Positions 16,836 through 56,125 of a stretch of DNA of 64,000 nt are shown piece after piece. This DNA comes from an uncultured delta proteobacterium (GTDB lineage Bacteria > Desulfobacterota > Syntrophia > Syntrophales > Smithellaceae), in assembly GCA_963762595.1 (NCBI GenBank), contig CAVXLI010000011.1, positions 98,087 through 162,086 on the forward strand. Reading direction: 5' to 3'. Made by a program: the position numbers and the translations under genes. The first letter of the stretch is position 1. Each line of letters begins with the position of its first letter. The notes under the pieces were generated by a model, which made no database searches, was not told the origin of the DNA, and was given only the letters and a program-made list of their open reading frames with translations.

Positions 16836-16965
16836 AAACTATAAATATTCCCGGCAAACATTTAATATATTTATGATTCTTTCCATACTTGAAATCTTTG
16901 ATGTTTTTCATTTTTATACTTTAGTTAGGATTTTATAATATAAGATTAATTTATATAATGACCGG

Positions 16966-17499: not shown

Positions 17500-17654
17500 T
17501 ATTTTTCCTCCCTCTTTATACTCATCTCCCTGGCATCACATTGTGACAGTTTAACACCGGGGTGACAATAAAGGTCAGTCATATAGTGATGTAAAAGCCA
17601 AAAGTCAATCGTTTTTTATTTTTTCTTTTATAAAATAATTACTTATAACTAATT

Positions 17655-33300: not shown

Positions 33301-34671
33301 TCAGTGCTCTGTCTTTATACTGTAGTTACGCATTTTGATCCTCAGAGTCTTTCTGTCGATACCAAGGAATTTTGCCGTTTTGTTGATCTGAAAATGGAAG
33401 TGGTTGAGCGCTTTTTCGATGTGTTCTTTTTCGACATCGACCAGGGTTACCCTGCCTGATGAAGAATCCACTACCGGCGCCTTTGCTCCTTCGCCCTGAC
33501 CATAGTAAAAGATATCGGATAAATTTACTGTTTCATGGTCACTCAGGACGCACAGACGTTCGATCGTGTTTTTCAGTTCTCTGACGTTTCCGGGCCATTT
33601 GTATGACAGCAGAGATTTTTTTGCTTCTTCGGAAAGGCAGCGCACTTTGCTTTTATATTTCTTTGTGTAAAAGTCGAGATAATGCTCGGCAATGGGAAGG
33701 ATATCGGCCTTGTGTTCTCTCAAGGGTTTTATATCCAAAGGCACAACGGAAATCCGGTAAAACAGGTCTTCCCGGAATTTTCCCGCTTCGATTTCAGCCC
33801 GGATATCCTTGTTGGTCGCCGCGATGAGTCTGACGTCCACCTTCTCTGGTGATGATTTGCCGACCCGCGGCACTTCCTGCTCCTGAATGACCCGCAATAA
33901 CTTTGCCTGAATATTGAGACTGATGTTGGAAATTTCGTCAAGGAACAAGGTTCCTTTATCCGCCATCTGGAAACGGCCGTCACGCGATTCCGTGGCGCCG
34001 CTGAAGGCCCCTTTGACATGACCGAACAGTTCGCTTTCCATCAGACTTTCAGCGAGCGAAGAACAATCAACCGGGATGAACGGCCTGTCGGCCCGTTTGC
34101 TTAATTGATGAATGGTACGTGCAACAAGTTCTTTTCCCGTGCCGCTTACCCCTGTGATGAGAACGGTGCTTTCAGTCTGCGCAATCCGCCTGATCGAATC
34201 TTTAAGCTCTTTCATATATTCGCTGGACCCGATCAGCACGGAAAGATCTTTTTCGCCGTTAGACAGTTCATCCGTTTTAAGAGCATTGTTGACCGCGTCC
34301 TTGAGTTCAGCCGCGGAGTATGGTTTTGCGAGAAAATTGAAAGCACCCTGACGCATGGCCTCAACAGCCAGCGGTATGGTCCCGTATCCGGTGATAATGA
34401 TAACCTTCGCCGAAACGTTATTTTCCTCTTTGAGTTTTTTCAGGATATCCAGTCCGCTCATTTTGGGCATTCTGATATCCAGCAGAATCAAGTCATAGGC
34501 ATCCTTCAGCGCCATCTCCAGGCCGCGAACAGCCTCTCCCGTACTCTCGACATGATGGCCTTTCCGAGAAAGTATCTGATAACATCCGTCCCGGATGGAT
34601 TCTTCATCGTCGATAATAAGAATTTTACTGCGTTTCTTTGCCGCTTCTTTCACTTTACCCCTTAAATACAA
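33301..34671 (-). CDS. sigma-54-dependent Fis-family response regulator (NtrC type)
   Basis: 456 aa, intact. Receiver, AAA+ domain (GVSGTGKE, GAFSGA, RVIQEQEV...) and C-terminal HTH. Confidence 0.93.
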   Translation of the reverse strand: MYLRGKVKEAAKKRSKILIIDDEESIRDGCYQILSRKGHHVESTGEAVRGLEMALKDAYDLILLDIRMPKMSGLDILKKLKEENNVSAKVIIITGYGTIPLAVEAMRQGAFNFLAKPYSAAELKDAVNNALKTDELSNGEKDLSVLIGSSEYMKELKDSIRRIAQTESTVLITGVSGTGKELVARTIHQLSKRADRPFIPVDCSSLAESLMESELFGHVKGAFSGATESRDGRFQMADKGTLFLDEISNISLNIQAKLLRVIQEQEVPRVGKSSPEKVDVRLIAATNKDIRAEIEAGKFREDLFYRISVVPLDIKPLREHKADILPIAEHYLDFYTKKYKSKVRCLSEEAKKSLLSYKWPGNVRELKNTIERLCVLSDHETVNLSDIFYYGQGEGAKAPVVDSSSGRVTLVDVEKEHIEKALNHFHFQINKTAKFLGIDRKTLRIKMRNYSIKTEH

Positions 34672-34811
34672 TTATCGGAAGACCCAAAAGTCATCCCGTT
34701 TCCTTAATCGCCAAACCGATATCCGGGAAAAATGCTATGATATTTCATGGGATTATGCAAGAGAAAGCTTCGAGGCACGGCAAGAACTTCCGGATGACCG
34801 TTTCTTACGGT

Positions 34812-36825
34812 TCAAGTGCAGACAGCATCGTTACCTGTTGAATTGTTTTTCCCCTTGTATGCGGGTAAAGATATAATGAAAGTCGTTCCAGTGCCTGGGT
34901 TGCATTCCGCATCGATGGTGCCGTTGTGTTTTTGGATGATTCCGTACACGATGGAAAGTCCCAGTCCCGTTCCCTGGCCTGGTTCCTTCGTCGTGAAGAA
35001 TGGTTCAAAGATGTGGGAAAGGTGTTCTTTGTCTATCCCTTTACCCGTGTCTGATATTAAAATCCTAATGGAATTGTTTCGTACTCAGCCCAGTGGCGAT
35101 CGTCAGCTTTCCGCCGCCCTTCATGGCGTCCGCCGCATTGATGAACAGATTTAGGAAAACTTCTTCCAATCTTGACCTGTCGCCTGTCACTTCGGGAAGA
35201 TTTTCCGCAAGCTTGGTTTCGATTTCTATCCCGTGAAACATGGATTGGTCTCTTACCAGTTTGAGAGAGGTATTGATGATCTGGTTTATCTGCAGGGGAA
35301 GCATTTCGCCTGTCGGCGTTCTCGCAAAATCCAGCAGGCTCTGTACGATTTCTTTACAGCGGTTCGTCTGATAGATGATCTTCTGCATGTTTTCCCGTGC
35401 GGGGCTATCCTCCGGGATATCTTCCAGGACGATGTTGCTGTACAGAAGGATTCCACCCAGAGGATTGTTGATTTCATGGGCGACGCCCGCCGCCATCTCA
35501 CCCAGGGCGGTCAATTTTTCGGTTTTTGCGAGCTGTTGATGCATCTTCTGCAATTGATCATTGTGGTCTTTCAGGGATCTGGACATATAATTGAAGGCTT
35601 CGTCCAGCATGTCGAAACCCGATATTTTATCGGGTGATAGTTTGTAGTCCAGGTTGCCGGAGGCAATAGCTTCTGTAGCCTTTTTCAGTATGCGTATTCT
35701 TTTGATAATGGTGTTGCCCAAATAAAGGGAAATGATAAACGCGATGATCATTCCCAGTGTGGTTATACCCAGATTTATCCAGATCATTTCCCGTTGTATG
35801 TCTCGGTATTTGGCTTCCAGTATCCCCGTGTAGAGAACGCCGATGAGCTTTTTATCCATGTTAAAAATAGGGGTATAAGTGGTAATATACCAGTCTTTCA
35901 CAACGAAAGCCCTGCCCACCCAGTCCTTCCCTTCTTTGATGACCCGATCATAAACTTCTTTGGAAAGAATAGTGCCGATGGCCCTTTTGTTATCCTTCGT
36001 CATGACATTGGTGGATATGCGCACGCCTCCCTGAAATATCGTGGCCACTCCCATTTCCTGACCTTTGTATTTTTCTCCGTGATATACGGTCTCTTTTATC
36101 TTATCCACTATTTCGTTGTCCTTATTAATAAGAACGCCTCCGACCAGAACACCCACCAACAGGTTTGTAGTTTCTATCCATTATCGGATAGGCAACTCTC
36201 ATGACCATACCTTCCGAAAGTTTATCTTCCCTGATTTCGGCGGACAAAGGCGTTTTTACAATATCCGTTTTCGCCCGGTCTGAAAGCGCAGGATTTTCCC
36301 TTAAAATATCTTTAATGGACATGAGTTCGGTTGAGGAGAGCGGGATCTTTTTCTCTATGCAGTTTCTGACAACGGGATCCTTCAGGAGGTTGTCCCCGCT
36401 GATTGCCGGATTAGACGCCCTGTACAATACCTTTCCCTCTGGCGTCCACAAGCGTGAGCATATCGAGAAAAATATTGTCATTCCCAGACTGTGTTCCCGT
36501 TCCTCTGCGAATGAGTCCTTTCATATATGCCATGCTGTAGATATCATTCCTGTTGATAAGCTCTTGCAGATCGGACCTTTCGGCGGTGAACTGAATCAGA
36601 GACGTAATTTTCTCGATCTTATTGTTATAGATCAACTTGGCCGTATTGATATCCATGACGCACCCTGTTCTGTACTTCGGCAATGGTGTTCCTGTTAATC
36701 GTCCATATACTGACAATGGTGGCAAAGATACCTGTAAGGCAGGTGGCAATCAGAAATCCAAACGCAAGACGGCTTTGCAAGTCTAACTTAAAAAGCCGCT
36801 GTATTCGTTTATTATTGATTTTCAT
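34812..36825 (-). pseudogene. sensor histidine kinase (TM, double Cache-like, TM, HAMP, HisKA, HATPase), at least four frameshifts
   Basis: Fragments 36625-36825 (TM), 36411-36749, 36125-36481 and 35065-36159 (Cache-like ATIFQGGVRISTNV...LYTGI, HAMP, AHEINNPL). The tail is in another frame ([24 protein letters not shown]), with its stop at 34812-34814. Confidence 0.85.
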
Positions 36826-37357: not shown

Positions 37358-38376
37358 TTATTCAGCGATTGCTTTCACAACCTCCAGCGTTCCTATATGC
37401 ACCGGACAGTAATCGGAACAGCGTCCGCAACCGACACAGCCGCATAAACTTCCCTGAATATCGATACTGTTAAAATCAAGAAGTTTGTGCTCGTGACGTC
37501 TTTTGAGCCTCAAAGCCTGGCTGGCTCTGGGATTATGGCCTGATGCCTCACGGGTAAAACCGCCGTAAAGACAAGCATCCCATGTCCGTGCGCGAAGACC
37601 GTTTCCCGGAGACGACTGATGATCATATACATTGAAGCAGGTGCAGGTGGGACACACAAAGGCACAACCGCCGCAGGTGATGCACTTCTGCGCCGAAACT
37701 CATCCCAGACTTTTTCATCGGCTTTGTTATCCTTGAGTTTGTTCATGGCTTTAACAACCGATTTCACCTCAGGTATGCTGCTGAATCGCCTTTTGTTTGA
37801 ATTCCTCTATTTGCCGTTTAGCCAGGGTGTCATCTACATCGGCAAGCGGTATGACCGATAACAATTCTTCGCCCCTGGGAGTGCCTGTTTCAATGAGAAA
37901 GACGTCACCTGTATCGTAGAACTGCAAATCGAAACCCTTTTGTGCGATAGGACCACTGCGTGTCGTGGTGCAGAAACAGGTTTCGTTCTGCGGGCCGGGA
38001 CAGGCCATGACAATTGTCGCCGCGGCATTTCGCCTTGCATTATAATAAACATCCTTCTTATCACGAGACATAAAGCTTGAGGCCTGAAGAATTCCCATCA
38101 TGTCGCAGGCGCGTATTCCAAATATAAGCATCTTTTTTGCCGATACGACTTCCCGGTATTCATTTTTTTCAACCTTAAAGATCACCTCGGTGTGGGGAAA
38201 AAACACGGCTTTTGGCGAAAGCGGAGGCTTTTTATAGTCGAGGGTAAATGTATTTTCCTGGAACGTATCGAATATACAGTCGCCATTCGCTAGTTTTGGT
38301 CGGGAGACAGTACATCGTGTTTTTGAGCCCAGATATTAATTGCCTTTATGAGGTCTTTTTTGGCCAGTGTTTTCAT
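37358..38376 (-). pseudogene. 4Fe-4S cluster subunit of formate dehydrogenase 1 (sulfhydrogenase-beta / AsrA-like), frameshifted
   Basis: CPTCTCFNVYDH and CVGCGRCSDYCP cluster motifs (37358-37657), N-domain 37769-38206. The start MKTLAKKDL overlaps the fdhA stop (ATGA). Confidence 0.7.
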
Positions 38377-40414
38377 GCGCATCTCCTGATTTTTACTGCA
38401 CACCCTTTATATTCGGGAATTTTGGCAATGGGATCATATGCCGAATTGGTCAACATGTTCACGGGTGCTTCGTGAAAATGGAATGTGGAAAATACAACAT
38501 TTTGCGGAACTCTTTTCGTAATCTCCGCCTTTAATTTTATGGAACCGCGGCGTGAAGTTAGTTCAACTATGTCATTGTTCTTTATGCCCAGCTTTTTTGC
38601 ATCCTCGGGATTGATTTCCACCAGCGCCGCCGGCGCCTCTCTATCCAGAATGCTGATGCGACGGGTCATGGTGCCGGTGTGGTAATGATAATAGATACGT
38701 CCTGTGGTCAGCATAAAATCGTACTCCTCATCGGGCATCTCCGCAACCGGTTTGAATTCACACGGCATAAATGTTCCCTTGCCCTTGCTGAATCTGTCCT
38801 TATGCAGGAAGGATGTGCCCGGATGCTCCTCATTGAGACAGGGCCACTGGAGTCCATGGCCGCGTTTCAATCGCTCATAGGTGATGCCCGCGTAGGAGGG
38901 CGTCAGGGCATTGATCTCCTTGAGCACATCGGCCGGCGATTCATAATTCATCGGGTAGCCGGCAAGCGTGCTCAGTTCGCAAATGATTTGCCAGTCAGGA
39001 CGGGCAAGTCCCGGAGGAGATACGGCCTTTGCCCGATAGCTGAACCCTTCTTTCCGTGTTGGTGTAAGTGCCATCTTTTTCGGCAAACGACGCGGCAGGA
39101 AGGACGACATCGGCTTTCGCCGCCGTTTCGGAAAGAAAGATATCCTGCACGACGAGAAAATCAAGATTGGATAGGGCATGCTCGATATGCGACGTATCAG
39201 GATCGCTCATCAAGGGATTTTCTCCCATAACATAGAGAGCTTTTAGCTCCCCTTTTTGCGCCGCCGTCATCATATCGGTGATGGTCAGCCCGGCCTTGTC
39301 GTCCAGCGCTTGCAACACCCCAGGCGTCTTCAAATTTCTTTTTTACTGCCGCATCGATCACCGGTTGATAACCACTGTATACGTTCGGCAAGCGCGCCCA
39401 TATCGCAGGCACCCTGGACATTATTCTGACCTCTCAGGGGATTTACTCCCGTCGAAGGCCTGCCCAGATTACCGGTAAGCATGGCCAGATTTGCGCAGGT
39501 TTTTACATTGTCGACACCGGTAGTATGCTGGGTAATGCCCATGGCATAGGCAAGCATCGCCTTATCCGCTTTGGCGTACATGCGCGCCGCTTTCTTAAGA
39601 TCGCTGCTATTGATGCCGGAAATTTTTTCCACGACTTGCGGTGGATATTTGCTGACGACCTCCTTCAATTGATCGAATCCTTCCGTTCTTGTTTCGACGA
39701 ATTCCTTGTCGTAGAGACCTTCTTCAATAATGACGTTCATGATGCCCGTTTAACACAGCCACATCCGTACCGATATTTTGCCTCAGATGTAAATCGGCAA
39801 ACTCGGCCAGCTGTATTTCTCTGGGATCAATAAGCAGTAATTGTGCTCCTCTTTTTACGGCATTGATGATGCGCGATCCGATCAAGGGATGCTGTGCCGT
39901 TGTGTTGGAACCGGTCACGAGGAACAGATCGGCATCGTCGAAATCGTTAATCGAGTTTGTCATGGCTCCGGAACCGAATGTCGCGGCCAGACCGACCACG
40001 GTGGAGCTGTGTCAGAGCCGGGCACAGTGATCGACATTGTTTGTTCCAAATGCCGCCCGCGCCATTTTCATAAAGAGATAGTTTTCTTCATTTGTTACTT
40101 TGGCGGAACTGAGAAAGGCCAGAGCGCGGGGGCCAAATTGCTTCTTTATATCCAAGCAGCCTGTCCGCAACAACCTTCAATGCTTCTTCCCATGTGCTTT
40201 CAACAAGCTCTCCGTGCTTCCTTATCAGCGGCTTGGTCAGCCTTTCGGGAGAATGAATAAATTCGTGCGCATTCCAACCCTTTACACATAACATGCCTTT
40301 ATTTACCGGGTTTGAGGGGCTGGGCTCTATACCTATCACCCTGTCTCCCTCCGACAAAAGATAGAAGCTGCATCCACATCCGCAAAATGGGCATACGGTT
40401 CGTGTCCTTTTCAT
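38373..40414 (-). pseudogene. fdhA: formate dehydrogenase catalytic subunit (molybdo/tungstopterin, selenocysteine), multiple frameshifts
   Basis: N-terminal 4Fe-4S motif CPFCGCGCSF, KGWNAHEF, in-frame TGA at 40012-40014 in [29 protein letters not shown], and a C-terminal barrel (HYHTGTMTRR...PEYKGCAVKI). Pieces: 40088-40414, 39724-39999, 39330-39740, 38995-39333, 38373-39179. Confidence 0.9.
39983..40014 (-). other. selenocysteine UGA plus a SECIS-like hairpin (FDH 1)
   Basis: TGA at 40012-40014 (minus strand). Twelve nt downstream lies gtggtc-GGTCT-ggccgc, a 6-bp stem with a GGUCU loop like the E. coli fdhF SECIS apex. Confidence 0.7.
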
Positions 40415-40416
40415 GA

Positions 40417-41260
40417 TCAGATTGCCTCCTTAATCTTTTCGATCTCCGTATAGGGGAAAACAGGTCCTTCAATACAGCAATACTTATCTCCGAAAGCGCA
40501 GTGACCGCACTTTCCGACACCGCATTTCATCATTCTCTCCAAAGACATGAAGATATGTTCCTTGGGAAAATCCCAGACTCAGGAGTTTCTGCAAAACAAA
40601 ACGATACATGATCGGGGGACCGCACATCACGGCATGGGTTTCCTTGGGAAAAAGAACGGCGCGGTCGAACAAACCGGTCACCACACCCACATATTGTTTC
40701 CAGATACCTTCATCGTCCCTGTCCACGCTGTAGTGATAATTGATGTCATTGCGGTCAAAAAAACTCAGCAGTTCATATTTAAAAAGAACATTTTCGGGAT
40801 TATTTGTTCCGTACATCAGGATGATGTCGTCAAACTCTTTCCTTTTGTCCAGAGAATAGAGCAGAAGCGAGCGCAGCGGGGCAAGCCCCAGACCGCCGGC
40901 GATAAGAAGTAGTTTGTGACCCTTGAGTTGCTCTACGGGGAAGCCTCTTCCGTATGGGCCCCGAATATGAAAAGTAGAACCTTTGCCCATTTCAAAAAGG
41001 GCTTCTGTTACTTTGCCCGCGCGTCTTACGCAAATCTCGAGAGTATCAGGCCTGGTTGGCGGCGAGGATATGCTGATGGGCGCCTCTCCCTTGCCGAAGA
41101 TGGAGACTTCAATAAACTGTCCCGGTTGATGACCAAAACTTTCCCATGTTGTTCCATCTTCCAACTTCAACTGGAATAATCGGTGATCTTTGATTTGTGG
41201 CAAAGTTCTGATAATAGAAACAGGTCGAAGCTCATATATATTGCCGCAATCACCTCCCAT
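40417..41260 (-). pseudogene. FAD/NAD(P)-binding 2Fe-2S subunit of formate dehydrogenase 1 (sulfhydrogenase-gamma / PyrK / AsrB-like), one frameshift near the C-terminus
   Basis: PGQFIEVSIFGKGEAPISISS, LLLIAGGLGLAPLRSLL, CGPPIMYRFV. The terminal cluster MKCGVGKCGHCAFGDKYCC is in another frame. Start taken at MGGDCGNIY (41260), after GGAGG. Confidence 0.75.
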
Positions 41261-41309
41261 AGCACTACCTCCTTCATCCTGAGGATTCTTCAGATGGTTA
41301 CCCGATAAC

Positions 41310-41325
41310 AGCAATTTTAATACCA
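41310..41325 (-). promoter_or_regulatory. candidate sigma-54 (-24/-12) promoter of the FDH 1 operon
   Basis: The minus strand reads TGGTATTAAAATTGCT with canonical GG/GC spacing, 49 nt upstream of the gamma-subunit ATG. Confidence 0.5.
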
Positions 41326-41719
41326 AATGGTTATATGTTTGATATAACAGCGATATTGGGGATACTGCATGGTGCCGTAAAAAGTAACGGGGTAAGTTAC
41401 CCCGACTTCGGGGAGTTATTACCCTTGCCAGATTTCGCACGGATTTCGCCCAGACTTTCCACTAATGATGGTCAGGCAGGTTTGAGCTATTCCATCCAGC
41501 GTGAATGATCGCTGCAATTCGCGAAGCATCGAAACGGGAAAGGGTGACCTGATCAATCTTTCCTTAGCAAATATAAGGTAAAACTCATAAGGACATTGCG
41601 TTCAGAAAGTTACTTAATTTTATTTCTTGATTTTCTTTATCTCTTCCTCAATACTTAATAAGTTTTCAATCAAATCGTCAGTATGATGATTACGCAAATC
41701 TTGTCTTTATGGAGGAAAA

Positions 41720-42538: not shown

Positions 42539-42710
42539 GATAAAGAAAAAAACAATCACTAGTTAATATATTCTGCAATTTGGGGAATAATTTTATTGAC
42601 AGTGAAGTTTATTATATGGTAGCCAAGCGGCCAAGAAAGCACCGTATAAAATTGTTACTTTATTTAATAAAATCAAATTTTTTCGGTATTTCCAATAAAA
42701 ATCACCGGAT

Positions 42711-43097
42711 ATGTTTTTATATGAGGAGTTGCCCTTGAAATTGCGAGATGTGAAAGAGATACTCGATGCCGATGTAATCGTCGGCGAAGAAAAATTAGAT
42801 ATGGAAGTCAAAACAGCGTTTGGCGCTGATTTGATGAGCGATGTTATAGCCTTTGCTAAAGCGGGCAGTCTTTTATTGACCGGCCTGACCAACGCCCAGG
42901 TCGTCAAAACCGCCACTTCCCTCAATATTGCTGCCATTATCTTAGTGAGAGGGAAAAAACCTTCAACCGAAGCTATTAACCTGGCTAAACAACTTCAAAT
43001 TCCCATTCTAACTACGAGATATATTTTATTTGAAACAGCGGGTCGTCTTTACGCTGAAGGCATAGTTGGTTGCCTGACAAAAGTTGAAAAACAATAA
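42711..43097 (+). CDS. DRTGG-domain protein, copy 1 (probable TTG start at 42735)
   Basis: LKLRDVKEILDADVIVGEEKLDMEVKTAFGADLMSDV...LLLTGLTN...ILVRGKKP. Paralogue of 43367-43741. Confidence 0.6.
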   Translation: MFLYEELPLKLRDVKEILDADVIVGEEKLDMEVKTAFGADLMSDVIAFAKAGSLLLTGLTNAQVVKTATSLNIAAIILVRGKKPSTEAINLAKQLQIPILTTRYILFETAGRLYAEGIVGCLTKVEKQ

Positions 43098-43366
43098 TGC
43101 ACGCAATGGATTTACATTCGTCGGAATCAACAACAGAAATAAAATATACGGTAGCGCTTTGGATTTGGAACCCACAGCAGGAAAAACGCAGCCGTTAATT
43201 TAATCTATTGTTCAATTCCAGCAATAATTTCATTGACAGTAAAGTTTGATATATGATAGTCAAATAGCCAAGAAAGAGTCATTTGAAATTATAATTTCAA
43301 CTAATAATATCAAACACTTTCTTCACTTTAGGAAATGCTGTATTTGTTTTTGATGAGGAGTGGACA

Positions 43367-43741
43367 TTGAAACTGCGTGAAGTACAAGAAATACTAAAAG
43401 CCGATGTTATTGTGGGCAAAGAAAAACTAGATATGGAAGTCAAAACAGCGTTTGGAGCCGATTTGATGAGCGATGTTCTGGCCTTCGCGAAAGCGGGCAG
43501 TCTTTTGCTGACCGGCCTGACCAATACCCAGGTCATCAGAATCGCCAATGTTCTGGACATTGCCGCTATAATTTTAGTTCGAGGAAAAAAACCGTCAGCA
43601 GAAACTATCGGTCTGGCCAAAGAACTTCAAATTCCCATTTTAACGACAAAATATATTTTATTTGAAACAGCGGGTCGTCTTTATGCTAAAGGTATAGTTG
43701 GTTGCCTGGAAAAAGTTGAAAATAACAGTGTACGCAACTGA
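43367..43741 (+). CDS. DRTGG-domain protein, copy 2
   Basis: 124 aa, about 85% identical by eye to copy 1. The same GAGGAG-TTG start context. Confidence 0.6.
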   Translation: MKLREVQEILKADVIVGKEKLDMEVKTAFGADLMSDVLAFAKAGSLLLTGLTNTQVIRIANVLDIAAIILVRGKKPSAETIGLAKELQIPILTTKYILFETAGRLYAKGIVGCLEKVENNSVRN

Positions 43742-44165
43742 AAATATTTTATATAAGAATAGTTTTGATGTTGAAGGCGGTAATTTTAGTAACGCGGGAA
43801 CTGTTTCCACGCGTATAAAATCGATCCTCAAACAAATAGGGTTACCCGATGACGTCGTTAGGAAATCAGCCATTGTCTGTTATGAATCAGAAATTAATAT
43901 CGTCTCTTACGCTAGAAAAGGAATTATCAATCTTACCGTCACCCCAAAGACTGTCGAGATTGAGGTAATTGATGAAGGACCCGGAATACCCAATATTGAA
44001 TTAGCAATGGAGCAAGGTTATTCCACCGCAAATCAGCAGATAAGAGAAATGGGTTTTGGCGCCGGTATGGGACTCTATAATATCAAATGCTATTCCGACA
44101 AATTCGACATCTCATCGGAAGTGGACAAAGGAACTTTCTTGAAAATGATTATTAACAGCCCATAA
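43698..44165 (+). CDS. GHKL-type ATPase / anti-sigma-factor-like Ser/Thr kinase (RsbW/SpoIIAB-like)
   Basis: EVIDEGPGIPN (G1 box) and GFGAGMGLYNI (G2 box). Probable GTG start at 43728, overlapping the DRTGG-2 stop. Confidence 0.65.
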   Translation: MVAWKKLKITVYATENILYKNSFDVEGGNFSNAGTVSTRIKSILKQIGLPDDVVRKSAIVCYESEINIVSYARKGIINLTVTPKTVEIEVIDEGPGIPNIELAMEQGYSTANQQIREMGFGAGMGLYNIKCYSDKFDISSEVDKGTFLKMIINSP

Positions 44166-44182
44166 CTCCTCAAGGATTTATC

Positions 44183-44524
44183 ATGGATATCGAAACTATT
44201 GCCAAAAAATTAAATTTAAAAGTAAGGTCTGCATCAGACAGACTTAAGAATAATGTTACAGGAGGTTACACGGGAGATCTCTTAAGCGATGTAATGGCAA
44301 ATTCTCACGAGGGAGATATCTGGATAACAAGACAGGTGCACCAAAATATAGTTGCCGTAGCCACTTTGAAAGAACATGCTGGTATAATTCTGGTTAATTC
44401 CTGCGAACCGGCCAAGGACACGCTGGAAAAAGCCGTTAAGGAAAACGTGCCAATCATGGTTTCAAATTTGCCCGCATTTGAGTTAACGGGCAAAATTTAT
44501 AATTTACTGGCAGCAAAAAAATAA
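44183..44524 (+). CDS. DRTGG-domain protein, divergent copy 3
   Basis: 113 aa. GGYTGDLLSDVMANSHEGDIWITRQVHQNIVAVA...IILVNSCEP has the same architecture as copies 1 and 2. Confidence 0.55.
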   Translation: MDIETIAKKLNLKVRSASDRLKNNVTGGYTGDLLSDVMANSHEGDIWITRQVHQNIVAVATLKEHAGIILVNSCEPAKDTLEKAVKENVPIMVSNLPAFELTGKIYNLLAAKK

Positions 44525-44592
44525 TTACCGTACGGCATCTTTATCAGAGCCGCCTGCCTATGGCCATTTTTGGTTAATTCCGGAAAAAGACG

Positions 44593-45340
44593 ATGCTTAA
44601 AGTTTTTAATTGTGATTTTCATATTCACACTTGCCTGTCACCTTGCGCCGAATCTGGATATGCATCCCAAAGCTCTGGTAGAAAAAGCCCTCGAAGCAAA
44701 ACTCGATATCATTGCTATCTGCGATCACAATTCTTCCGAAAACGTTCCTTATGTTATTAAGGCCGCGCGAAGGAAAAAATTTAAAAATATTTCCGGGAAT
44801 GGAAATAACAACAAGCGAAGAAGTGCATCTTTTAGCCCTTTTTGATTCCTTGTCCGATCTCGCCAGAACTGCAAGATATTGTTGTATCAGCATCTGGCAG
44901 GAATAAATGATGAAGAACATTTCGGCGTCCAGGCAATTGTCAACGAAAATGGCGAAGTGGAAGGAATAAACAATAAATTATTAATCGGCGCGACTGATCT
45001 TCCGTTGAATGAATTATTGAATTATTTACATCAACTGAACGGATTAGCCATAGCCGCGCACATTGACAGGGAAAGCTTCAGTGTTTTGAGCCAGCTGGGA
45101 TTTATTGATGAAAAGATGCATTTTGACGCTTTGGAAATAACGCCATCTAACAGGATTTGCGCAAGCGAGGATCAAATATCGGGAACTTGAGCAATTATTC
45201 ATTTATAATTTCGTCCGATGCCCATTATTTAAAAGACATCGGAACGGCGGCAACAAGAATTATCCTTGCAGGAACCATCTTTCGCGGAATTGAAAATGGC
45301 TTTCGCCGGACAAAACGGCCGTCACATTCTGGAGCAATAA
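44593..45340 (+). pseudogene. PHP-domain phosphoesterase, at least three frameshifts
   Basis: FNCDFHIHTCLSPCA, IIAICDHNS, GMEITTSEEVHLLALF, LAIAAHIDRE and SSDAHYLKDIG are spread over three frames. TAA at 45338-45340 overlaps the next ATG. Confidence 0.75.
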
Positions 45341-45857
45341 TGCTGGAGCTTGCCGCACATATTCTCGACATCGCTGAAAATTCCATTCGCGCGGGCGCCG
45401 AAACTAGTGGAAATTGCTATTAACGAAGATTCGGCAAAAGATTTGCTCTCCATAGAAATTAACGATGACGGCAGCGGAATGACAAAAGAAGAAATTAAAA
45501 AAGTTGAAGATCCGTTTTATACGACAAAAACCGTGCGGCGGGTGGGATTGGGAATTCCACTTCTGGCCAACGCCGCCCAAATGGCCGGCGGCAATCTTGA
45601 GACTGAAATCCGCAAAAGGAAAGGGAACAAAACTTACAGCAACCTTTGCACTCAGCCATTTGGACAGGCAACCCATGGGAAATATTACAACGACAATGCT
45701 GATTCTTATTGCCGGAAATTCAGATGTTGATTTTATTTACAAACATAGGCATAATGACCGGCAGTTCACATTGGACACGCGTCAGATACGTAAAGAAATC
45801 GATGATGTACCCATTAATCATCCTGAAATAATTAAAGTATATTCGGGGCGTTATTGA
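45340..45857 (+). pseudogene. second GHKL/histidine-kinase-like ATPase, frameshifted
   Basis: MLELAAHILDIAENSIRAGA, EINDDGSGMTKEE, FYTTK...VGLGIPLL, then KGKGTKLTATFALSH...ILIAGNSDVDFIY in another frame. Confidence 0.7.
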
Positions 45858-45919
45858 CGAAGGACTTCGCGAAATAAAACCTACGGCTTAACTTACCCCG
45901 AAGATCGAGGAGGAATTTG

Positions 45920-46416
45920 ATGAAAGCGGAAGATACATGAACTTTTAAAAGAATTTACACCGGAACAGATAGCCAAGCTCAACAAAATTATTAAAAAACA
46001 CAAAGGCAAACCCGGCGGATTGATTCCGGTGCTGGAAGAAGCGCAAGTGGCTCTGGAATATCTGCCTATGTCCGTGCAAAAAAAGATTGCCACAGAATTA
46101 AATTTGCCTTTGAGCCGTGTTTACGGCGTTGTCACCTTTTACTCATTTTTCACCATGACGCCGCGCGGTAAACACACTGTTCGTGTTTGTCTGGGCACAG
46201 CCTGTTATGTCCGCGGCGGCAAAGCCATTGCTGAAACTCTGCGAAAAAGAATTCGGCATTAAAGAAGGCGAAACCACTCCGGATAGAATGTTCACTCTGG
46301 AAACGATCCGTTGTTTGGGCGCCTGCGGCTTGGGACCTGTGGTTGTTGTGGATGAAGATGTGCATGGCCGCGTAAAGCCAGCCAAAATCAAGGAAATATT
46401 GAGTCAATATAGATAA
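45920..46416 (+). pseudogene. NuoE-like thioredoxin-fold 2Fe-2S subunit (HydC/FdhC type), frameshifted
   Basis: GGLIPVLEEAQ..., VRVCLGTACYVRG and IRCLGACGLGPVVVVDE are spread over frames. ATG at 45920 follows GAGGAGG. Confidence 0.85.
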
Positions 46417-46438
46417 TACATTTTTTGCAAGCAAAAAA

Positions 46439-46838
46439 ATGGAGGAAACGCCAATGGCGAAATTGACTATAGATGATTTAAAAAAAATAAAAGAAAAAGT
46501 GCATAAGGAAATGTCTCTGCGGGATGGCGACCGCCGCGTCAAAGTTACCGTTCATATGGGAACTTGCGGTATCGCTTCCGGCGCCAAAGAAGTTATGGAT
46601 ACATTGCTTGCAGGAAATTGAAGCCGCCGGCGCCAATGACGTTGTCGTAACCACATCGGGTTGTATGGGATTATGCAGCCGCGAACCTTTGGTTACCGTG
46701 GAAATATTAAATCAGGAACCGATAAAATATGAATATATGAATCCCAACAAAATGAGACAGGTTTTTAAAAGACATATTTTGGCGGGAGAAATTCAGACGC
46801 CCTTTGTTTTGGCGAAAGGCTCTGAAGTAATCAAATAA
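46439..46838 (+). pseudogene. thioredoxin-like 2Fe-2S ferredoxin, one frameshift
   Basis: VTVHMGTCGIASGA (46439-46621) and TSGCMGLCSREPLVTV (46524-46838). Confidence 0.8.
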
Positions 46839-46904
46839 TTTTTTCGCCTATCATGCGTTCATATATTGAAAGCATGATAATTTCTTAAGGAGGATGTTGG
46901 CTAA

Positions 46905-49973
<3,069 letters not shown>

Positions 49974-50014
49974 ACCTTATGTGAGCTTATTAAATATTTT
50001 GCAAGGAGCAGGAA

Positions 50015-52723
50015 ATGGAGAAAAAAGTACCTTTAACAATAGATGGAAAAAATGTGGAAGCTTCTGCAGGCCAAACCATCTTGGAATGTGCCAGTGAAAA
50101 CGGCATTTTTATCCCCACCCTTTGCCACTATGGCAAAACAACCAATGTCGGCGCTTGCCGTGTTTGCGTCGTCGAAGTGGAAAACGCCAGATCGCTCGTT
50201 GCCTCATGCTGTATGCCGGTAAGCCCCGGGCATGGTTATCCGCACCAACACAGAAGCGGTGCGCAACGCCCAAAAGATGATTATCGAACTTCTCTGGTCG
50301 TCGGGAGATCATAATTGTCTTACCTGCGAACAAAACGGCCAGTGTGAGTTGCAAAATTTGATTTACTGGTTAAAAATCGAAAAGCCCCGTTTCGAAATCG
50401 AACCTCCGGGTTACGCTCTGGAAGACAACAACACCATGATCCAGCGCGATCTTAACAAATGCATCCTTTGCGGACGCTGTGTTCGCGCCTGCAACGAAAT
50501 TCAGGTCAATGAAGTGCTGGATTTTTCCATGCGCGGTTCACATGCCAAAGTAGGCCCGGCATTTGATGCCGATTACATCAATTCCTCCTGCGTTTTCTGC
50601 GGCGAGTGCCTGCAGGTATGCCCCACCGGAGCCATAACCTTACAAACAGGCGAAATTTGCCGGCCGTCCCTGGGAACTGGAAAAAGTCCGCACCACCTGC
50701 ACTTATTGCGGTGTCGGCTGTCAGATGGATCTTTTTGTTAAAGACGGTCAAATTGTCAAGGTATCGGGAAATCGTGATTACGGAAAACCAAACGAAGGCA
50801 GTCTTTGTGTCAAAGGACGCTTCGGCATGGATTTCATCCAGCATCCTGACCGTCTGAAAAAACCTTTAATCCGGCACAATAAAAATGAGGATTTAAAAGA
50901 AGCCACCTGGGATGAAGCCTACACCTTCATTGCGGATAAACTTTCCTCGATTAAAAAAACAAGCGGCGCCGACAGCATCGCCGGACTTTCTTCGGCCCGC
51001 TGCACCAACGAAGAAAATTATCTTTTCCAGAAATTCATGCGGGCGGTAATCGGCACCAACAATGTCGATCACTGTGCCCGGCTCTGACACTCCGTAACGG
51101 TGGCCGGTCTGGCCGCAACATTCGGCAGTGGAGCAATGACCAATTCCATCGATGAATTGGAATATACCGATTTAATTTTGGCAACAGGCACCAATACCAC
51201 GGAAAATCATCCGGTAATCGGCATGAAAGTCAAACGGGCGGTACGTCAAGCAAGGGACAAAGCTGATCGTCATCGATCCCCGGGAAATTGATTTGGTCAA
51301 ATACGCCGATATCTGGCTGCGCCAGAAACCTGGAACAGATGTTGCTGTTTTCAACGGCCTGATGAATGTTATTATCTCCGAAGATCTTTATGCCAAAGAA
51401 TACGTGGCAGAACGAACCGAAGGATTTGATGCTCTGAAAGCAGCCGTGGAAAAATATACACCGGAATATGTTGAAAAAATTTCCGGCATTCCGGCGGAAG
51501 ATTTGAAAAAAGCGGCCGGTATGTATGCCAAGGCAAAAAGAGCCAGCATTATTTACGCGATGGGCATTACCCAGCATATCAGCGGCACGGATAACGTTAA
51601 AACCATGCGCCAATCTGTCCATGCTTTGCGGCAATGTCGGCATCGAAGGCGGCGGCGTAAATCCTCTGCGCGGTCAGAACAATGTTCAGGGCGCCTGCGA
51701 TATGGGCGGACTGCCCAATGTTTTCCCGGCTTATCAGCAGGTGGCCAATGAAGATGCCCGCAAGAAATTTGAAACGGCCTGGAATGCTAGCTTTATCGGC
51801 AAAGCCCGGCTTGACCATTGGTCGAAATGATGAACGCGGCCGGTAACGGCGAGATTAAAGCGCTTTATATCATGGGTGAAAATCCGCTTCTTTCCGATCC
51901 TGATTTGCATCATGCTAAAGAAGAACTCAAAAAGCTGGATTTGCTTGATTGTCCAGGATATTTTCATGACCGAAACAGCTCAATTAGCCGATGTTGTTTT
52001 GCCGTCGGCCAGTTTTGCCGAAAAGGACGGCACATTCACCAATACGGAACGCCGCGTTCAGCGAATCAGAAAAGTTGTAAACGCTCCGGGAGAAGCCAAA
52101 GCCGGATTGGGAGATCATTGCGGGAATCTCCACGAAAATGGGATATCCGATGAAATATTCTTCGGCGAAGGAAATTTTTGAAGAAATCGCGAAGGTCACA
52201 CCGAGCTACGCGGGAATCAGTTATGAACGTATCGAAAAAGAAGGCATTCAATGGCCTTGTCCCACGGCCGAACATCAGGGAACTAAATTCTTGCATAAAG
52301 ACAGATTTTCGCGAGGGTCTGGGACTCTTCCACGCCATTGAATACATCCCGCCCGCGGAACTTCCCGATAAAGAATATCCCTTCATTCTTTCCACCGGCC
52401 GTGTGCTTTATCACTATCATACAGGCACAATGACCCGCCGCGCTCAAGGACCTAGCGAACGCTATCCGGAGAGTCTGGTAGAAATGAATCCGGCTGATGC
52501 CGACAAATTCGGCATAAGCGAAGGACAAATGATTAAGATAACTTCGCGACGCGGCACGCTGAAAGCCAAAACACATATAACCGAAAAAAGTCCGCGGGGA
52601 ACGATTTTCATGAATTTCCATTTTGCCGAATCGCCGGTTAACATGCTGACCAATCCGGCGCTGGATCCGATAGGCAAGATTCCCGAATACAAAGTCTGCG
52701 CTGTTAAGCTGGAAGCAGCTTAA
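50015..52723 (+). pseudogene. fdhA: NuoG-type formate dehydrogenase catalytic subunit (selenocysteine), many frameshifts
   Basis: N-terminal 2Fe-2S/4Fe-4S domains (GACRVCVVEV, CLTCEQNGQCELQ, CILCGRCVRAC, CVFCGECLQVCP). Mo/W-pterin domain (CTYCGVGCQMD, CVKGRFG). In-frame TGA at 51085-51087 in [30 protein letters not shown]-terminus HYHTGTMTRR...PEYKVCAVKLE. Confidence 0.9.
51085..51116 (+). other. selenocysteine UGA plus a SECIS-like hairpin (FDH 2)
   Basis: TGA at 51085-51087. gtggcc-GGTCT-ggccgc at 51100-51116 is a 6-bp stem with a GGUCU loop. Confidence 0.7.
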
Positions 52724-52767: not shown

Positions 52768-54054
52768 ATGGTAAATGAAAATTTGGAAAGCAAGAGATGG
52801 TGGCTTGCTATCGCGGCGGTCGTAATGCAATTGTGCTTGGGAACCGTCTATGCGTGGTCGGTTTTTAAAAAGCCGTTGATGACGACGCACGGTTGGGCGG
52901 AAACACCCACACAACTGGCATTCATAATTTTTATGTTTGTTGTCGGAACATCAGCTGCTTTTGGCGGAACTCTTGTCGATAAAAAAGGCCCCCGTTTTGT
53001 GGCTACAATCGGCGGTATTCTTTTCGGTATCGGCACCCTTCTTTCCGGCTTAGCTGATCAAATGGGAAACGTTTATATTCTTTATCTAGGCTATGGATTA
53101 ATCGGCGGCATCGGTAATGGCTTTTGTTACGTGACGCCTATTGCCACGTTGATTCGCTGGTTTCCCGATAAACGAGGCTTGGTCACCGGTCTCGCGGTTA
53201 TGGGCTTCGGCTTCGGCGCTTTTTTCATGGGACAAATTGCCCCCAAAATGATTATCGCTTATAAGGGCGGATTGACTGCCTCCGGCGTGGCCATGACCTT
53301 CTATATTTGGGGCATTATTTTCCTCATACTCGTAACCGCTGCCGCACAGCTCTACAAAAATCCGCCGCAAGGTTGGCTTCCGGCCGGGTTCAAACCATCG
53401 GCTACTACGGTATCCGCAGCCGACTCCTGTAATTTTGATGTGGCCTGCAAAACCCCTCAGTGGTGGATGCTCTGGTCTATGCTGTTCCTAAATATCTCGG
53501 CTGGTCTTGGTCTGATCTCTCAGATGTCACCCATCGCGCAAGATTTATTTAAACCTATCGCCGACGCCAGCTTAAGTCCTGAAGATCTGGTCAAAGCGCT
53601 GGCTGTCGCCGGCGGCAGTGTTGTCGCCTACTCGGCCATCTTCAACGGACTGGGCCGTCTTTTCTGGGCTAGAGTTTCCGATACAATCGGCAGAAAATCA
53701 GTGTTTGCCATCATGTTCGCTTCACAGGCTGTAATCTACGCGTTGGTCGCGATGGGAATTATTAACGGCTACTATCTGTTCCTTGTGTCCGCTTGCTATC
53801 TTTTGGCCTGCTACGGCGGCGGCTTTGCCACTATGCCTGCCTTTTGCGCCGATTCATTTGGTCCCGGCTACATCGGAAAGTGCTACGGCTTTATGCTTAC
53901 GGCATGGGCCTGCGCCGGCATTGCCGGTCCGCTTGTATTCGCGCAGCTCAACAGATCCATCGCTCTTTATGTTGCCGCGGGGCTACTTGTTGTTGGTTTC
54001 TTCATCGCTCTTGCTTATAAGAGCCCGGATTTAAAGAAAGTCAAGGCAAAGTAA
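52768..54054 (+). CDS. MFS transporter of the oxalate/formate antiporter (OFA) family
   Basis: 428 aa, intact, about 12 TM helices, OFA-like N-terminus (RWWLAIAAVVMQLCLGTVYAWSVF). Directly downstream of FDH 2. Confidence 0.85.
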   Translation: MVNENLESKRWWLAIAAVVMQLCLGTVYAWSVFKKPLMTTHGWAETPTQLAFIIFMFVVGTSAAFGGTLVDKKGPRFVATIGGILFGIGTLLSGLADQMGNVYILYLGYGLIGGIGNGFCYVTPIATLIRWFPDKRGLVTGLAVMGFGFGAFFMGQIAPKMIIAYKGGLTASGVAMTFYIWGIIFLILVTAAAQLYKNPPQGWLPAGFKPSATTVSAADSCNFDVACKTPQWWMLWSMLFLNISAGLGLISQMSPIAQDLFKPIADASLSPEDLVKALAVAGGSVVAYSAIFNGLGRLFWARVSDTIGRKSVFAIMFASQAVIYALVAMGIINGYYLFLVSACYLLACYGGGFATMPAFCADSFGPGYIGKCYGFMLTAWACAGIAGPLVFAQLNRSIALYVAAGLLVVGFFIALAYKSPDLKKVKAK

Positions 54055-55547: not shown

Positions 55548-56125
55548 ATGAAAAACTTAAGCGCGAAGAAAATGATTGCATTGTCACTCATATTGTCGCT
55601 CTTATCATTATCCGTAGTCTATTCCAATGAAAATCCGCCATCCATAAACAAAAGCAATGACCAACAGTTAAAAGAAAAACTAATAGGAATTGACGGGAAA
55701 ACAGCAATGGTAATTGCGAACCAGTGGCGGATGCGTAAAATTGACGTTGTAACTTTTGTTACACCGGATAAGGTAAATTTCAAGTTTAAAGATGGGCGGA
55801 TTATAAGCGTACCGCTGCCTGATGGTGAAATGATAGTTTCAATCGCGCCGTATATCAATAAAACTCACACGTGTGCAACACATTACATGTCGAGTTGTGA
55901 TGCGGAATTGAAGAACACAAAGATAAAAGTAGAAGCCGTTACTGCCGATGGTAAAATCCTGATTAACAAAACCATGAAACAGCGCCGACCGGTTTTCTGG
56001 ATCTTTGGCTGCCCAGAAATGAAGACATTGATTTAACAGTGAGCGCCAAAGGCAAAAGTGCAACCGGAAAAATTTTTACCTATAGAGACAGCAAAACATG
56101 CGAAACAACTCTTAAGCTGGAATAA
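55548..56125 (+). pseudogene. CueP-family periplasmic metal (copper)-binding protein, one frameshift
   Basis: Signal peptide, SIAPYINKTHTCATHYMSSCDAEL. In the shifted frame: GFLDLWLPRNEDIDLTVSAKGKSATGKIFTYRDSKTCETTLKLE (TAA 56123-56125). Confidence 0.6.

Follow-up and report, generated by a model that had tools for sequence, protein, structure and literature searches.

We describe a cassette of six small genes in a 64,000-nucleotide stretch of DNA (the window; GenBank assembly GCA_963762595.1, contig CAVXLI010000011.1, positions 98,087 to 162,086 of the forward strand) from an uncultured bacterium of the Smithellaceae. The genes encode three small DRTGG-domain proteins (DRTGG1 and DRTGG2 of a type we call DRTGGa, and DRTGG3 of a type we call DRTGGb), a GHKL-type kinase-like protein (KIN), a PHP-family phosphoesterase (PHP) and a second, histidine-kinase-like ATPase (HATP2), and they lead into the genes of a formate dehydrogenase (FDH) with NuoE- and NuoF-type subunits. 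The same gene order recurs in well over 100 loci, far more often than chance would allow, and the cassette is conserved in more than 10 phyla. With modest confidence, we consider that the six genes and the adjacent gene for a thioredoxin-like ferredoxin, HydD, probably form a dedicated ATP-dependent signalling cassette of the bifurcating core made up of NuoE and NuoF (Bfu, HydBC-type).

Conservation of the cassette and its linkage to NuoE/NuoF operons

The kinase was used as the probe for loci, with kinase similarity as the only sampling criterion. KIN had 4348 relatives at E ≤ 1e-5. An exhaustive kinase profile search gave 1327 representative clusters (50% identity), and a pattern scan of one genome per GTDB species gave at least 599 confirmed loci. 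The best 80 of these loci, with 10-kb flanks, were annotated using hidden Markov models built from the intact proteins of locus L001 (our L numbers are given where loci need to be told apart). Linkage was then counted over 60 species-level GTDB loci with at least 7 kb of downstream sequence, taking genes on the same strand and within 10 kb. Genes for DRTGGa were present in 55 of these loci, DRTGGb in 52, PHP in 51, HATP2 in 49, NuoE in 44 and a free-standing ferredoxin in 41. NuoF was found within 10 kb downstream in 44 of the 60 (binomial p ~2e-61 against an assumed, generous background of a 2% chance of NuoF in a random 10-kb stretch, with loci that are related by ancestry taken as independent). 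An earlier, sequence-only reading of the window had tied the module to NuoEF-type oxidoreductase operons, and this linkage is borne out by the counts.

The loci span Syntrophales, Bacteroidales, several families of Clostridia, Acidobacteriota, Ignavibacteria, Spirochaetia, Planctomycetia, Zixibacteria and candidate phyla. A tie of similar small genes to bifurcating [FeFe]-hydrogenase operons, which the sequence-only reading had drawn, was correct and could be seen in the loci (Land, 2020, PMC8163306; Schut, 2022, PMC9304861). Its statement that the module is attached to a formate dehydrogenase instead is true of the window but not unique to it, as at least 15 other loci have the same attachment. 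The ferredoxin (127-137 amino acids) tracks HATP2. Its gene directly follows that of HATP2 in 43 loci, and in 25 others NuoE stands between the two; we therefore regard HydD as the seventh cassette member.

No STAS, sigma factor, helix-turn-helix or other DNA-binding, or PP2C gene was present among the called genes within 10 kb on either side in the Pfam-annotated loci (L001-L004, L165-L168, L169 and L171), and no DNA-binding gene was present in the conserved core of the more than 100 loci. The earlier remark that the module comes without a sigma factor or DNA-binding protein also holds for these Pfam-annotated loci.

Five metagenome loci (L121, L124, L133, L140 and L154) have a tandem arrangement in which the cassette, NuoE, the ATPase, HydD and NuoF are followed by a second NuoE-NuoF pair without HydD or the ATPase, and then by FdhA. 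The cassette-linked NuoEF of these tandem loci may be separate from the diaphorase of the FDH itself.

The downstream operon encodes a putative bifurcating enzyme

The six genes had been described as running straight into NuoE, ferredoxin, NuoF and FdhA genes. The run was confirmed; its ferredoxin is thioredoxin-like, NuoF is fused to GltD, and the FdhA gene has an in-frame TGA. The gap between HATP2 and NuoE is 28 nucleotides and contains a ribosome-binding site, which places NuoE in the same operon. The FdhA fragments match, in series, the Pfam families Fer2_4, NADH-G_4Fe-4S_3, Fer4, Molybdop_Fe4S4, Molybdopterin and Molydop_binding. The in-frame TGA (selenocysteine) comes after the sequence VDHCARL, and the intact equivalent in L169 was called as two proteins of 356 and 538 amino acids, one on either side of the selenocysteine codon. 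The Bfu-type set was identified with Pfam and NCBIfam, both on fragments from the window and on intact proteins of L001 and L169. It comprises BfuC (NuoE-like), a long BfuB, which is a NuoF with N-terminal [2Fe-2S] and C-terminal Fe-S domains, and a BfuA-like subunit with a NuoG/HydA-type Fe-S domain. The operon thus encodes a putative Bfu (HydABC-type) electron-bifurcating enzyme, with bifurcation predicted from these domains.

The region 38373-41440 (-) encodes a second selenocysteine FdhA, which has the same VDHCARL-TGA motif and is also frameshifted. This FdhA lies downstream of a gene for an FNR-like FAD/NAD-binding oxidoreductase (40484-41440) and is divergent from the cassette operon. 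Beside this second FDH, genes at 33301-36159 (-) encode a two-component system with an sCache/HAMP/HisKA sensor kinase and a response regulator that is sigma-54-dependent.

The kinase-like protein and the DRTGG proteins

NCBIfam has no curated family for any of the six cassette proteins. The earlier call of an anti-sigma-factor-like GHKL kinase was upheld, since KIN scored 37.7 bits with HATPase_c_2 (PF13581, cut-off 27.4 bits) and also passed with HATPase_c. Comparison with L169 indicates that its likely start is the GTG at 43728, giving a protein of 145 amino acids. The residues of the N-box, G1 and G2 motifs (E63, E65, N67, D92, G94/96 and GxGxGxG) are invariant in 69 relatives. The only kinases in the PDB matched by the KIN profile were SpoIIAB structures (1TIL, 1L0O and 1TH8; E ~6e-12). 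KIN scored 49 bits with the spIIAB equivalog (cut-off 135 bits), far below the SpoIIAB and RsbW cut-offs, and is therefore not a SpoIIAB ortholog. In natural fusions among its relatives, the kinase is preceded by a DRTGG domain or a CBS pair, or is followed at the C-terminus by a HydS-like protein, HydS being a putative sensory hydrogenase. A fusion of HATPase_c to a sensory hydrogenase has been noted in Hydrogenedentota (PMC11406978).

All three DRTGG calls of the sequence-only reading were retained. DRTGG1 and DRTGG2 passed the PF07085 cut-off of 25.2 bits with 48.8 and 46.7 bits, respectively. DRTGG3 scored 21.8 bits, and we accept it as a genuine family member because its ortholog family aligns to the DRTGG1/2 family with an hhalign probability of 99.8% (E = 3e-28). 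An AlphaFold2 model of DRTGG2, with a predicted local distance difference test score (pLDDT) of 88, had its best PDB matches among DRTGG structures (3L2B, 3L31 and 2IOJ; E ~3e-07, TMq 0.68-0.74). A motif D-[LM]-[ML]-S-D-V is common to both DRTGG families and is missing from the DRTGG domain of pyrophosphatases. In 65 DRTGGa orthologs, D32, S35 and D36 are invariant and residue 49 is Thr in 62 and Ser in three; in 60 DRTGGb orthologs, the Ser of the DLLSDV motif and the Thr of a WIT motif are invariant. The motif Asp and Ser are thus conserved in 65/65 DRTGGa and 59-60/60 DRTGGb sequences, and the Thr one strand later in 62/65 and 60/60. The model of DRTGG2 places the conserved residues at a strand end and helix N-terminus and at the end of the next strand, on the C-terminal edge of the sheet. 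Such a position suits a phospho-acceptor and would equally suit a phosphate-binding pocket.

DRTGG1 and DRTGG2 are products of a tandem duplication that includes the promoter-like region (42563-43014 against 43200-43646, 74-81% identity, with a coding block of 300 nucleotides at 81%). Two DRTGGa copies are also found in L005, L006, L169 and L170, so the duplication is retained in some Smithella-type genomes and is not an assembly artefact; L165, L171 and L001 have one copy. Translation of DRTGG1 likely starts at the TTG at 42735, after a GAGGAG ribosome-binding site.

A promoter-like element and leader precede every DRTGGa copy in the Smithella-type loci (window 42590-42734 and 43227-43366; L001 9535-9670; L165 7888-8027). 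The best promoter-like match of the region (43233-43260, 10 of 12 positions) belongs to copy 2, whose site and leader are conserved in L001, L165 and L006, and the copy 1 region aligns with the sequence upstream of DRTGGa in L165 and L001. A palindrome, TTGAC-N21-GTCAA, lies across the element (TTGACA-N16-GATAGT), and about 110 nucleotides of AT-rich leader follow the element. This palindrome-bearing element may be an operator for a regulator. We rejected a riboswitch or other structured leader, as there were no Rfam matches at E ≤ 1 and the consensus fold of five close sequences was -4.1 kcal/mol with scant covariation.

Stand-alone DRTGG proteins (P0394-P0509) carry the label "predicted transcriptional regulator" in JGI annotations. 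This is only the name of COG4109, and the proteins have no DNA-binding domain. Such COG-derived labels could mislead the interpretation of these operons in the literature.

The PHP phosphoesterase and the second ATPase

The PHP fragments of the window had no PF02811 match in Pfam, and only PHP_C at 19.3 bits, under its cut-off. When stitched from three reading frames, the protein is collinear with intact relatives of 246-247 amino acids. Intact orthologs carry PF02811 and a complete set of metal ligands (H10, H12, D44, H45, E70, H78, H155, D207 and H209, in the pattern HxH, DH, E, H, H, DxH, invariant in 43 orthologs), and the earlier assignment to the PHP family therefore stands. A Cys within an H-x-H-T-x-L-S-P-C motif is also invariant. 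The family profile matched, among PDB sequences, Endonuclease Q (8e-15), 3E0F, RNase AM, TM0559, the pAp phosphatase CV1693, PolC, HisJ and YcdX, and its best NCBIfam matches were TrlF, Ppl, RNase RNM and pAp phosphatase. No protein phosphatase of the CpsB/YwqE type was matched by the profile among all PDB sequences at E ≤ 1. The role of a protein-phosphatase eraser that had been proposed for PHP is thus not supported, given the EndoQ, RNase AM and pAp phosphatase types matched and the loss of PHP from some cassettes.

The PHP and HATP2 genes overlap by one nucleotide in the window, as the DRTGG2 and KIN genes also overlap, and PHP and HATP2 are fused in L025, L027 and L041. The DRTGGb gene is almost always immediately upstream of PHP. 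A defence system built from PHP and GHKL proteins was considered and rejected: PADLOC gave weak partial matches for PHP only (Ppl, PDC-M49A) and none for the other five proteins, and the redox synteny also speaks against it.

HATP2 scored 37.6 bits with HATPase_c, in agreement with the description of a second histidine-kinase-like ATPase. Intact orthologs have 182 amino acids and an AlphaFold2 model had a pLDDT of 87. The best families for its catalytic and ATP-binding (CA) domain were AtoS, ZraS and KinD, with KinB and WalK in the PDB. In the model, the Bergerat fold matches the CA domains of WalK, ZraS and KinB, and the whole chain is best matched by Topo VI-B and MutL-type GHKL proteins; branched-chain ketoacid dehydrogenase kinase (BCKDK) was also among the fold matches. 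The last 80 residues are modelled as an alpha/beta extension and not as a helical hairpin, and no HisKA/DHp domain was detected.

Variants of the cassette and its catalytic partners

Elsewhere, the genes usually run in the order DRTGG, kinase, group D HydS, DRTGG, PHP, ATPase, NuoE/HydD/NuoF and HydA. A HydS gene (420-460 amino acids) lies between the kinase gene and the second DRTGG gene in 47 of the 60 GTDB loci. The HydS proteins have two [4Fe-4S] motifs and an H-cluster domain in which the first Cys of TSCCP is replaced and the MPCxxK-like and ExxxCxxGCxxG-like motifs are kept, together with a C-terminal Cx2Cx4Cx16C motif, and they have no PAS domain. The group D (M2e) putative sensory [FeFe]-hydrogenases, TamHydS among them, have been described with the same features. 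HydS is absent from the window and from most other Syntrophales/Smithella-type loci of the set; the window has the remaining members, in order. The sequence-only reading had not noted that a sensory hydrogenase gene belongs to the common form. The window is a reduced, HydS-less variant of the group D HydS-linked cassette in which DRTGG is duplicated and the linked enzyme is an FDH.

Another variant was found with CBS-kinase fusions, for which a metagenome scan gave 24 loci with enough flanking sequence. The gene order here is DRTGGa, CBS-kinase, DRTGGb, PHP, (NuoE), ATPase, ferredoxin and NuoF(-GltD), and HydS was present in only one of the 24 loci. We rejected the idea that CBS replaces DRTGGa, as the CBS-kinase loci keep DRTGGa upstream; CBS replaces HydS. 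The two variants also differ in their enzymes. HydS-type loci had a HydA partner in 28 cases and an FdhA or Nfn/Stn-type partner in three, while the corresponding counts for CBS-type loci were zero and 13 (Fisher p 1e-8, uncorrected for ancestry). The H2 sensor goes with the H2-converting enzyme, and the general adenylate-type sensor goes with the others. A regulatory device would be expected to show such a match between sensor type and enzyme type, whereas a structural or maturation factor would not.

Among the close relatives of the window, a chassis made of the cassette, NuoE, the ferredoxin and NuoF-GltD is constant, and the catalytic subunit is exchanged. FdhA with selenocysteine is found on this chassis in the window, L169 (9534-12233) and L171. 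A 595-amino-acid BfuA/NuoG-like protein with [NiFe] HoxY/HoxH is found in L165 (14656-18443), L166 and L167; L168, whose contig ends inside the NuoF-GltD gene, is presumably also of the [NiFe] type. [FeFe] HydA and HydF are found in L001-L004, L006 and L007 (L001 HydA at 16293-18053). Six Syntrophales loci (L005, L008, L009, L010, L012 and L023) have no catalytic subunit after NuoF-GltD, and in these NuoE, ferredoxin and NuoF/GltD may work on their own as an Nfn-like NAD(P)H/ferredoxin enzyme, or may serve partners whose genes lie at other sites. The swapping of catalytic subunits on a constant chassis indicates that the cassette follows the NADH/ferredoxin core and not the catalytic subunit.

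The flanking genes are shared in part. A hydratase gene is common to the window (an enoyl-CoA hydratase gene upstream of the cassette), L165, L169 and L171, and a gene for a major facilitator superfamily (MFS) transporter to the window, L165 and L169. The neighbourhood of L001 differs, with trigger factor/Clp/Lon genes upstream and a lyase gene and HydF downstream.

Integrity of the genes in the window

Nucleotide alignment of the window to the syntenic relatives L165 and L169, which are intact, mapped about 35 single-base insertions at 44651-52315. They break the genes for PHP (44651, 44768, 44863/6, 44882, 45148, 45187 and 45266/8), HATP2 (45405, 45597 and 45830/4), NuoE, the ferredoxin, NuoF-GltD and FdhA, with more than 25 lying beyond the 10 in PHP and HATP2. 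No insertions relative to L165 and L169 were found at 42735-44524. Because the events are insertions only, occur at about one per 100 nucleotides, lie mostly outside long homopolymers and have intact counterparts for every cassette gene in L169, L171 and L165, they are most likely assembly or sequencing errors and not signs of decay. The pattern points to a locally unpolished long-read assembly.

The insertions also affect the description of the cassette itself. Six co-directional reading units are present at 42711-45891 (+), as the sequence-only reading had it, but PHP and the second ATPase are each not one open frame here. The end that had been assigned to the module, 45857, is an artefact of the last frameshift, and the true stop lies 34 nucleotides further at 45889-45891.

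Proposed function and alternative explanations

Within a signalling cassette of the kind we favour, gene overlap and natural fusions group the members into two sub-modules. The input sub-module would consist of DRTGGa and the SpoIIAB/RsbW-type kinase, with or without HydS or CBS, and would take H2 status from HydS or adenylate status from CBS where these are present. In the variant of the window, the conserved Asp/Ser/Thr pocket of the DRTGG protein would be the sole candidate input. The output sub-module would consist of DRTGGb, PHP, the CA-type ATPase and HydD. Its action is probably post-translational, since neither the conserved core nor the 10 kb on either side in the annotated loci contain a DNA-binding, sigma, STAS or PP2C gene; reversible phosphorylation or ATP-dependent binding would alter the activity or assembly of the bifurcating core, and DRTGGa, DRTGGb, HydD, NuoE and NuoF are candidates for the phosphorylated proteins. 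More tentatively, we suggest that the cassette may be a hitherto unrecognised post-translational control system for flavin-based electron bifurcation, present across many phyla, in which the SpoIIAB-like kinase, a detached histidine-kinase CA domain and the PHP phosphoesterase would act on DRTGG (possibly also HydD) phospho-switches that gate NuoE/NuoF, and that it may also be the signalling partner of group D HydS. If this is true, the Syntrophales version would be a switch that works without an H2 sensor, on FDH, [NiFe] or [FeFe] partners alike.

Several observations weigh against a signalling cassette dedicated to the NuoE/NuoF core. HATP2 is without any phospho-acceptor domain. The PHP family has its closest relatives among phosphoesterases that act on nucleic acids and nucleotides and not among known protein phosphatases, and PHP is dispensable in some cassettes, being gone from otherwise complete ones (L055, L129, L135 and L163). 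Two of the six genes are frameshifted in the window. Orphan DRTGGa-kinase pairs occur away from NuoEF genes in L011, L013, L021 and L024; the neighbours of the orphan pairs in L011, L013, L024 and L139 (poly(A) polymerase, MFS and radical SAM genes) are uninformative on an alternative target. Finally, the linkage statistics come from loci that were chosen by kinase similarity and share ancestry.

The alternatives overlap in part with the explanation we favour and with each other. Strict partner switching is possible, although we are inclined to doubt it. Here DRTGG would be a STAS-like phospho-substrate, on which the RsbW-like kinase writes a Ser/Thr phosphate that PHP erases, and unphosphorylated DRTGG would sequester the kinase or release it from a target in the enzyme. 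The overlapping small-protein/kinase pair has the order of rsbV-rsbW and spoIIAA-spoIIAB, SpoIIAB is the nearest solved kinase, and the invariant Ser35 and conserved Thr49 are placed by the model at a helix N-terminus and strand end like the phosphoserine of STAS; the phosphorylation of purified multimeric [FeFe]-hydrogenases that Poudel and colleagues reportedly observed in 2016 would also agree. The annotated loci, however, hold no STAS, PP2C or sigma gene, the PHP is unlike CpsB/YwqE and can be lost, HydD and the second ATPase are left unexplained, and the fusions of the kinase to CBS, HydS and DRTGG fit an input domain better than a substrate. The modelled arrangement of the invariant DRTGG residues would also form a pocket typical of ligand binding. 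This last point agrees with small-molecule signalling, where DRTGG (and CBS) would bind a nucleotide-type ligand, PHP would hydrolyse it, and the GHKL proteins would be ATP-driven clamps or adaptors on the core, with no protein phosphorylation. The PHP profile is nearest to RNase AM, pAp phosphatase, EndoQ and 3E0F, and the whole-chain fold of HATP2 comes nearest to clamps of the Topo VI-B and MutL type. The kinase occurs fused to CBS pairs, the DRTGG model superposes on the DRTGG domain in the adenine-nucleotide/Ap4A-regulated insert of CBS-pyrophosphatases, and the C-terminal sheet edge, where phosphate usually binds, carries the invariant D, S, D and T. We nevertheless consider this unlikely, as the cassette encodes no messenger cyclase or synthetase and the characterised members of the family of the first ATPase are protein kinases. 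In CBS-pyrophosphatases it is established that the nucleotides bind the CBS domains and not DRTGG, as Tuominen and co-workers reportedly found in 2010.

A transcriptional output, with the sensor acting through an unlinked sigma factor or a regulator such as Rex on expression of the operon, also seems improbable to us. Sigma factors are the normal targets of RsbW/SpoIIAB relatives, control of expression has been suggested for HydS-type sensors, deletion of hfsB alters adhE transcripts, and the promoter and leader with its palindrome is strongly conserved ahead of the cassette in Smithella-type loci. Against this stand the lack of a DNA-binding gene in the core of the more than 100 loci and within 10 kb in the annotated loci, the "transcriptional regulator" label on DRTGG being a COG name only, and HATP2 and HydD being embedded among structural genes. 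That same embedding, with products absent from the purified holoenzyme, would suit assembly, maturation or repair factors for the NuoE-HydD-NuoF core (for instance in flavin or Fe-S handling) in place of regulators; GHKL ATPases include chaperones, and PHP could process a nucleotide cofactor. We find this very unlikely, since many Bfu-type operons do without the cassette, including second copies in cassette-bearing loci (the short NuoF operons near the cassette in L029, L048, L056 and L065, and the second pair in L121), and since the kinase bears classical sensor modules (HydS, CBS) that correspond to the type of enzyme. Last, the cassette and downstream operon could be decaying pseudogenes in the source genome, as the 10 frameshifts in PHP and HATP2 and the more than 25 further downstream might suggest. 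We give this scarcely any credence, since all events are +1 insertions at about one per 100 nucleotides with none in the adjoining 1.8 kb, there are neither premature stops nor deletions, amino-acid conservation is otherwise intact, and other genes of the window are fragmented likewise, a pattern that fits technical error; the relatives L165, L169 and L171 are intact.

Relation to known systems

The nearest described genes are the accessory genes of Bfu/HydABC operons, which belong to the same families in the same order; HATP2 corresponds to their "hisK" gene and the 127-137-amino-acid ferredoxin to hydD/BfuD (PMC9304861). Compared with these operons, the window is without HydS, carries DRTGGa twice, has NuoF fused to GltD and uses FdhA as its catalytic subunit. 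In the neighbourhood of TamHydS, the RsbW-like kinase is the "histidine kinase-like ATPase" beside TamHydS, and a paper of 2026 names the identification of this protein's interaction partners and signalling route as work ahead (PMC13104023). Our literature search for DRTGG, PHP or the kinase together with hydrogenase found no description of the cassette as a unit, only "hisK" and "histidine kinase-like ATPase" in passing. The Bfu genes "hisK" and "hydD", the ATPase next to TamHydS and the HATPase-hydrogenase fusions had each been seen before. In the papers that we read, we found no account of the genes as one cassette or of its DRTGG and PHP members, nor of the variant with CBS, the Syntrophales variant without HydS or the exchange of catalytic partners.

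More distant systems share parts of this design. Partner-switching modules (SpoIIAA/SpoIIAB/SpoIIE, RsbV/RsbW/RsbU and RsbR/S/T) likewise combine a SpoIIAB/RsbW-type kinase with a small-protein gene just upstream and a phosphoesterase in the operon, whereas the cassette has no STAS, PP2C or sigma factor and instead has a second, histidine-kinase-type ATPase and linkage to a redox enzyme. Pyruvate dehydrogenase kinase (PDK) and BCKDK, with the phosphatase PDP, are GHKL-fold kinases that respond to NADH/NAD and ATP/ADP and exert post-translational control over a multi-subunit dehydrogenase. The cassette shows no sequence-level orthology to these kinases and no PDK four-helix N-terminal domain, and the eraser there is PP2C, not PHP. 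We use the PDK/phosphatase pair or a partner-switching module as the closest working analogy for the cassette.

In HydS/Hfs systems (group C, PAS-containing; hfsABCD; HydS of R. albus with PK/PP), a sensory-type [FeFe]-hydrogenase with a Ser/Thr kinase and a phosphatase controls hydrogen and redox metabolism. The phosphatase of these systems is of the PP2C type. They use PAS, whereas the cassette family uses the PAS-less group D HydS, DRTGG and PHP, and the window has no HydS. Poudel and colleagues are said to have reported in 2016 that kinase genes lie near multimeric [FeFe]-hydrogenase genes and that the purified enzymes are phosphorylated. The CBS-DRTGG insert of family II pyrophosphatases has the same DRTGG fold (TMq 0.68-0.69), and DRTGG is tied to CBS nucleotide sensing in both; the DRTGG proteins of the cassette differ in being stand-alone and in having the family-specific D-L-M/L-S-D-V motif.

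In fermenters, acetogens and syntrophs such as Smithella, it is electron-bifurcating hydrogenases and FDHs that set the economy of H2 and formate. The comparison presented here names candidates that travel with these enzymes, namely the kinase, the two DRTGG types, PHP, the CA-type ATPase and HydD, and identifies HydS, CBS and PHP as optional parts. It is also relevant to the engineering of H2 and ethanol yields in those thermophilic Firmicutes in which the cassette is complete.

Layout of the locus and neighbouring genes

The features of the cassette and the downstream operon are listed in Table 1.

Table 1. Coordinates of the cassette, its leaders and the downstream genes in the window.
Feature	Position	Strand	Basis or remarks
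Promoter-like site and AT-rich leader (~110 nt), copy 1	42563..42734	+	TTGACA at 42596-42601; direct repeat of 43200-43321, 74% identity
DRTGG1 (DRTGGa type)	42711..43097	+	PF07085 48.8 bits; 83% identical to DRTGG2
Promoter-like site and leader, copy 2	43200..43366	+	TTGACA-16-GATAGT at 43233-43260
DRTGG2 (DRTGGa type), overlapping the kinase gene	43367..43741	+	PF07085 46.7 bits
KIN, RsbW/SpoIIAB-type GHKL Ser/Thr kinase-like	43698..44165	+	HATPase_c_2 37.7 bits; HATPase_c
DRTGG3 (DRTGGb type)	44183..44524	+	PF07085 21.8 bits, under cut-off; hhalign to DRTGGa family
PHP-family metal-dependent phosphoesterase, 7 single-base insertions	44593..45340	+	Stitched frames match intact orthologs
HATP2, histidine-kinase-type CA ATPase, 3 single-base insertions	45340..45891	+	HATPase_c 37.6 bits
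NuoE/HydC-type [2Fe-2S] subunit, 2 insertions	45920..46416	+	PF01257; tblastn against L001 NuoE, 80-85% identity, two frames
HydD/BfuD-like thioredoxin-type ferredoxin, 1 insertion	46439..46838	+	tblastn against L001 127-aa protein, 82-98% identity
NuoF/HydB fused to GltD-like NAD(P)H flavoprotein, many insertions	46905..49975	+	nuoF_fam 499 bits; GltD-type families; 1018 aa in relatives
FdhA-type catalytic subunit, N-terminal NuoG/HydA-like Fe-S domain	50015..52723	+	Pfam on successive fragments; selenocysteine TGA 51085-51087
MFS transporter directly after FdhA	52768..54054	+	MFS_1; same position in L169 and L165

Putative formate-related transporters are found beside the operons of L005 (17456-18328 and 19308-20459) and of the window (52768-54054). 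One of the L005 transporters appears FNT-like by eye, and the others are of an MFS, oxalate/formate-antiporter-like type. Further downstream in the window, 54418-55332 encodes a Gly/Met/Tyr-rich, secreted-looking protein of 304 amino acids with no Pfam family, which is followed by a CueP-like periplasmic copper-binding protein (55548-56036).

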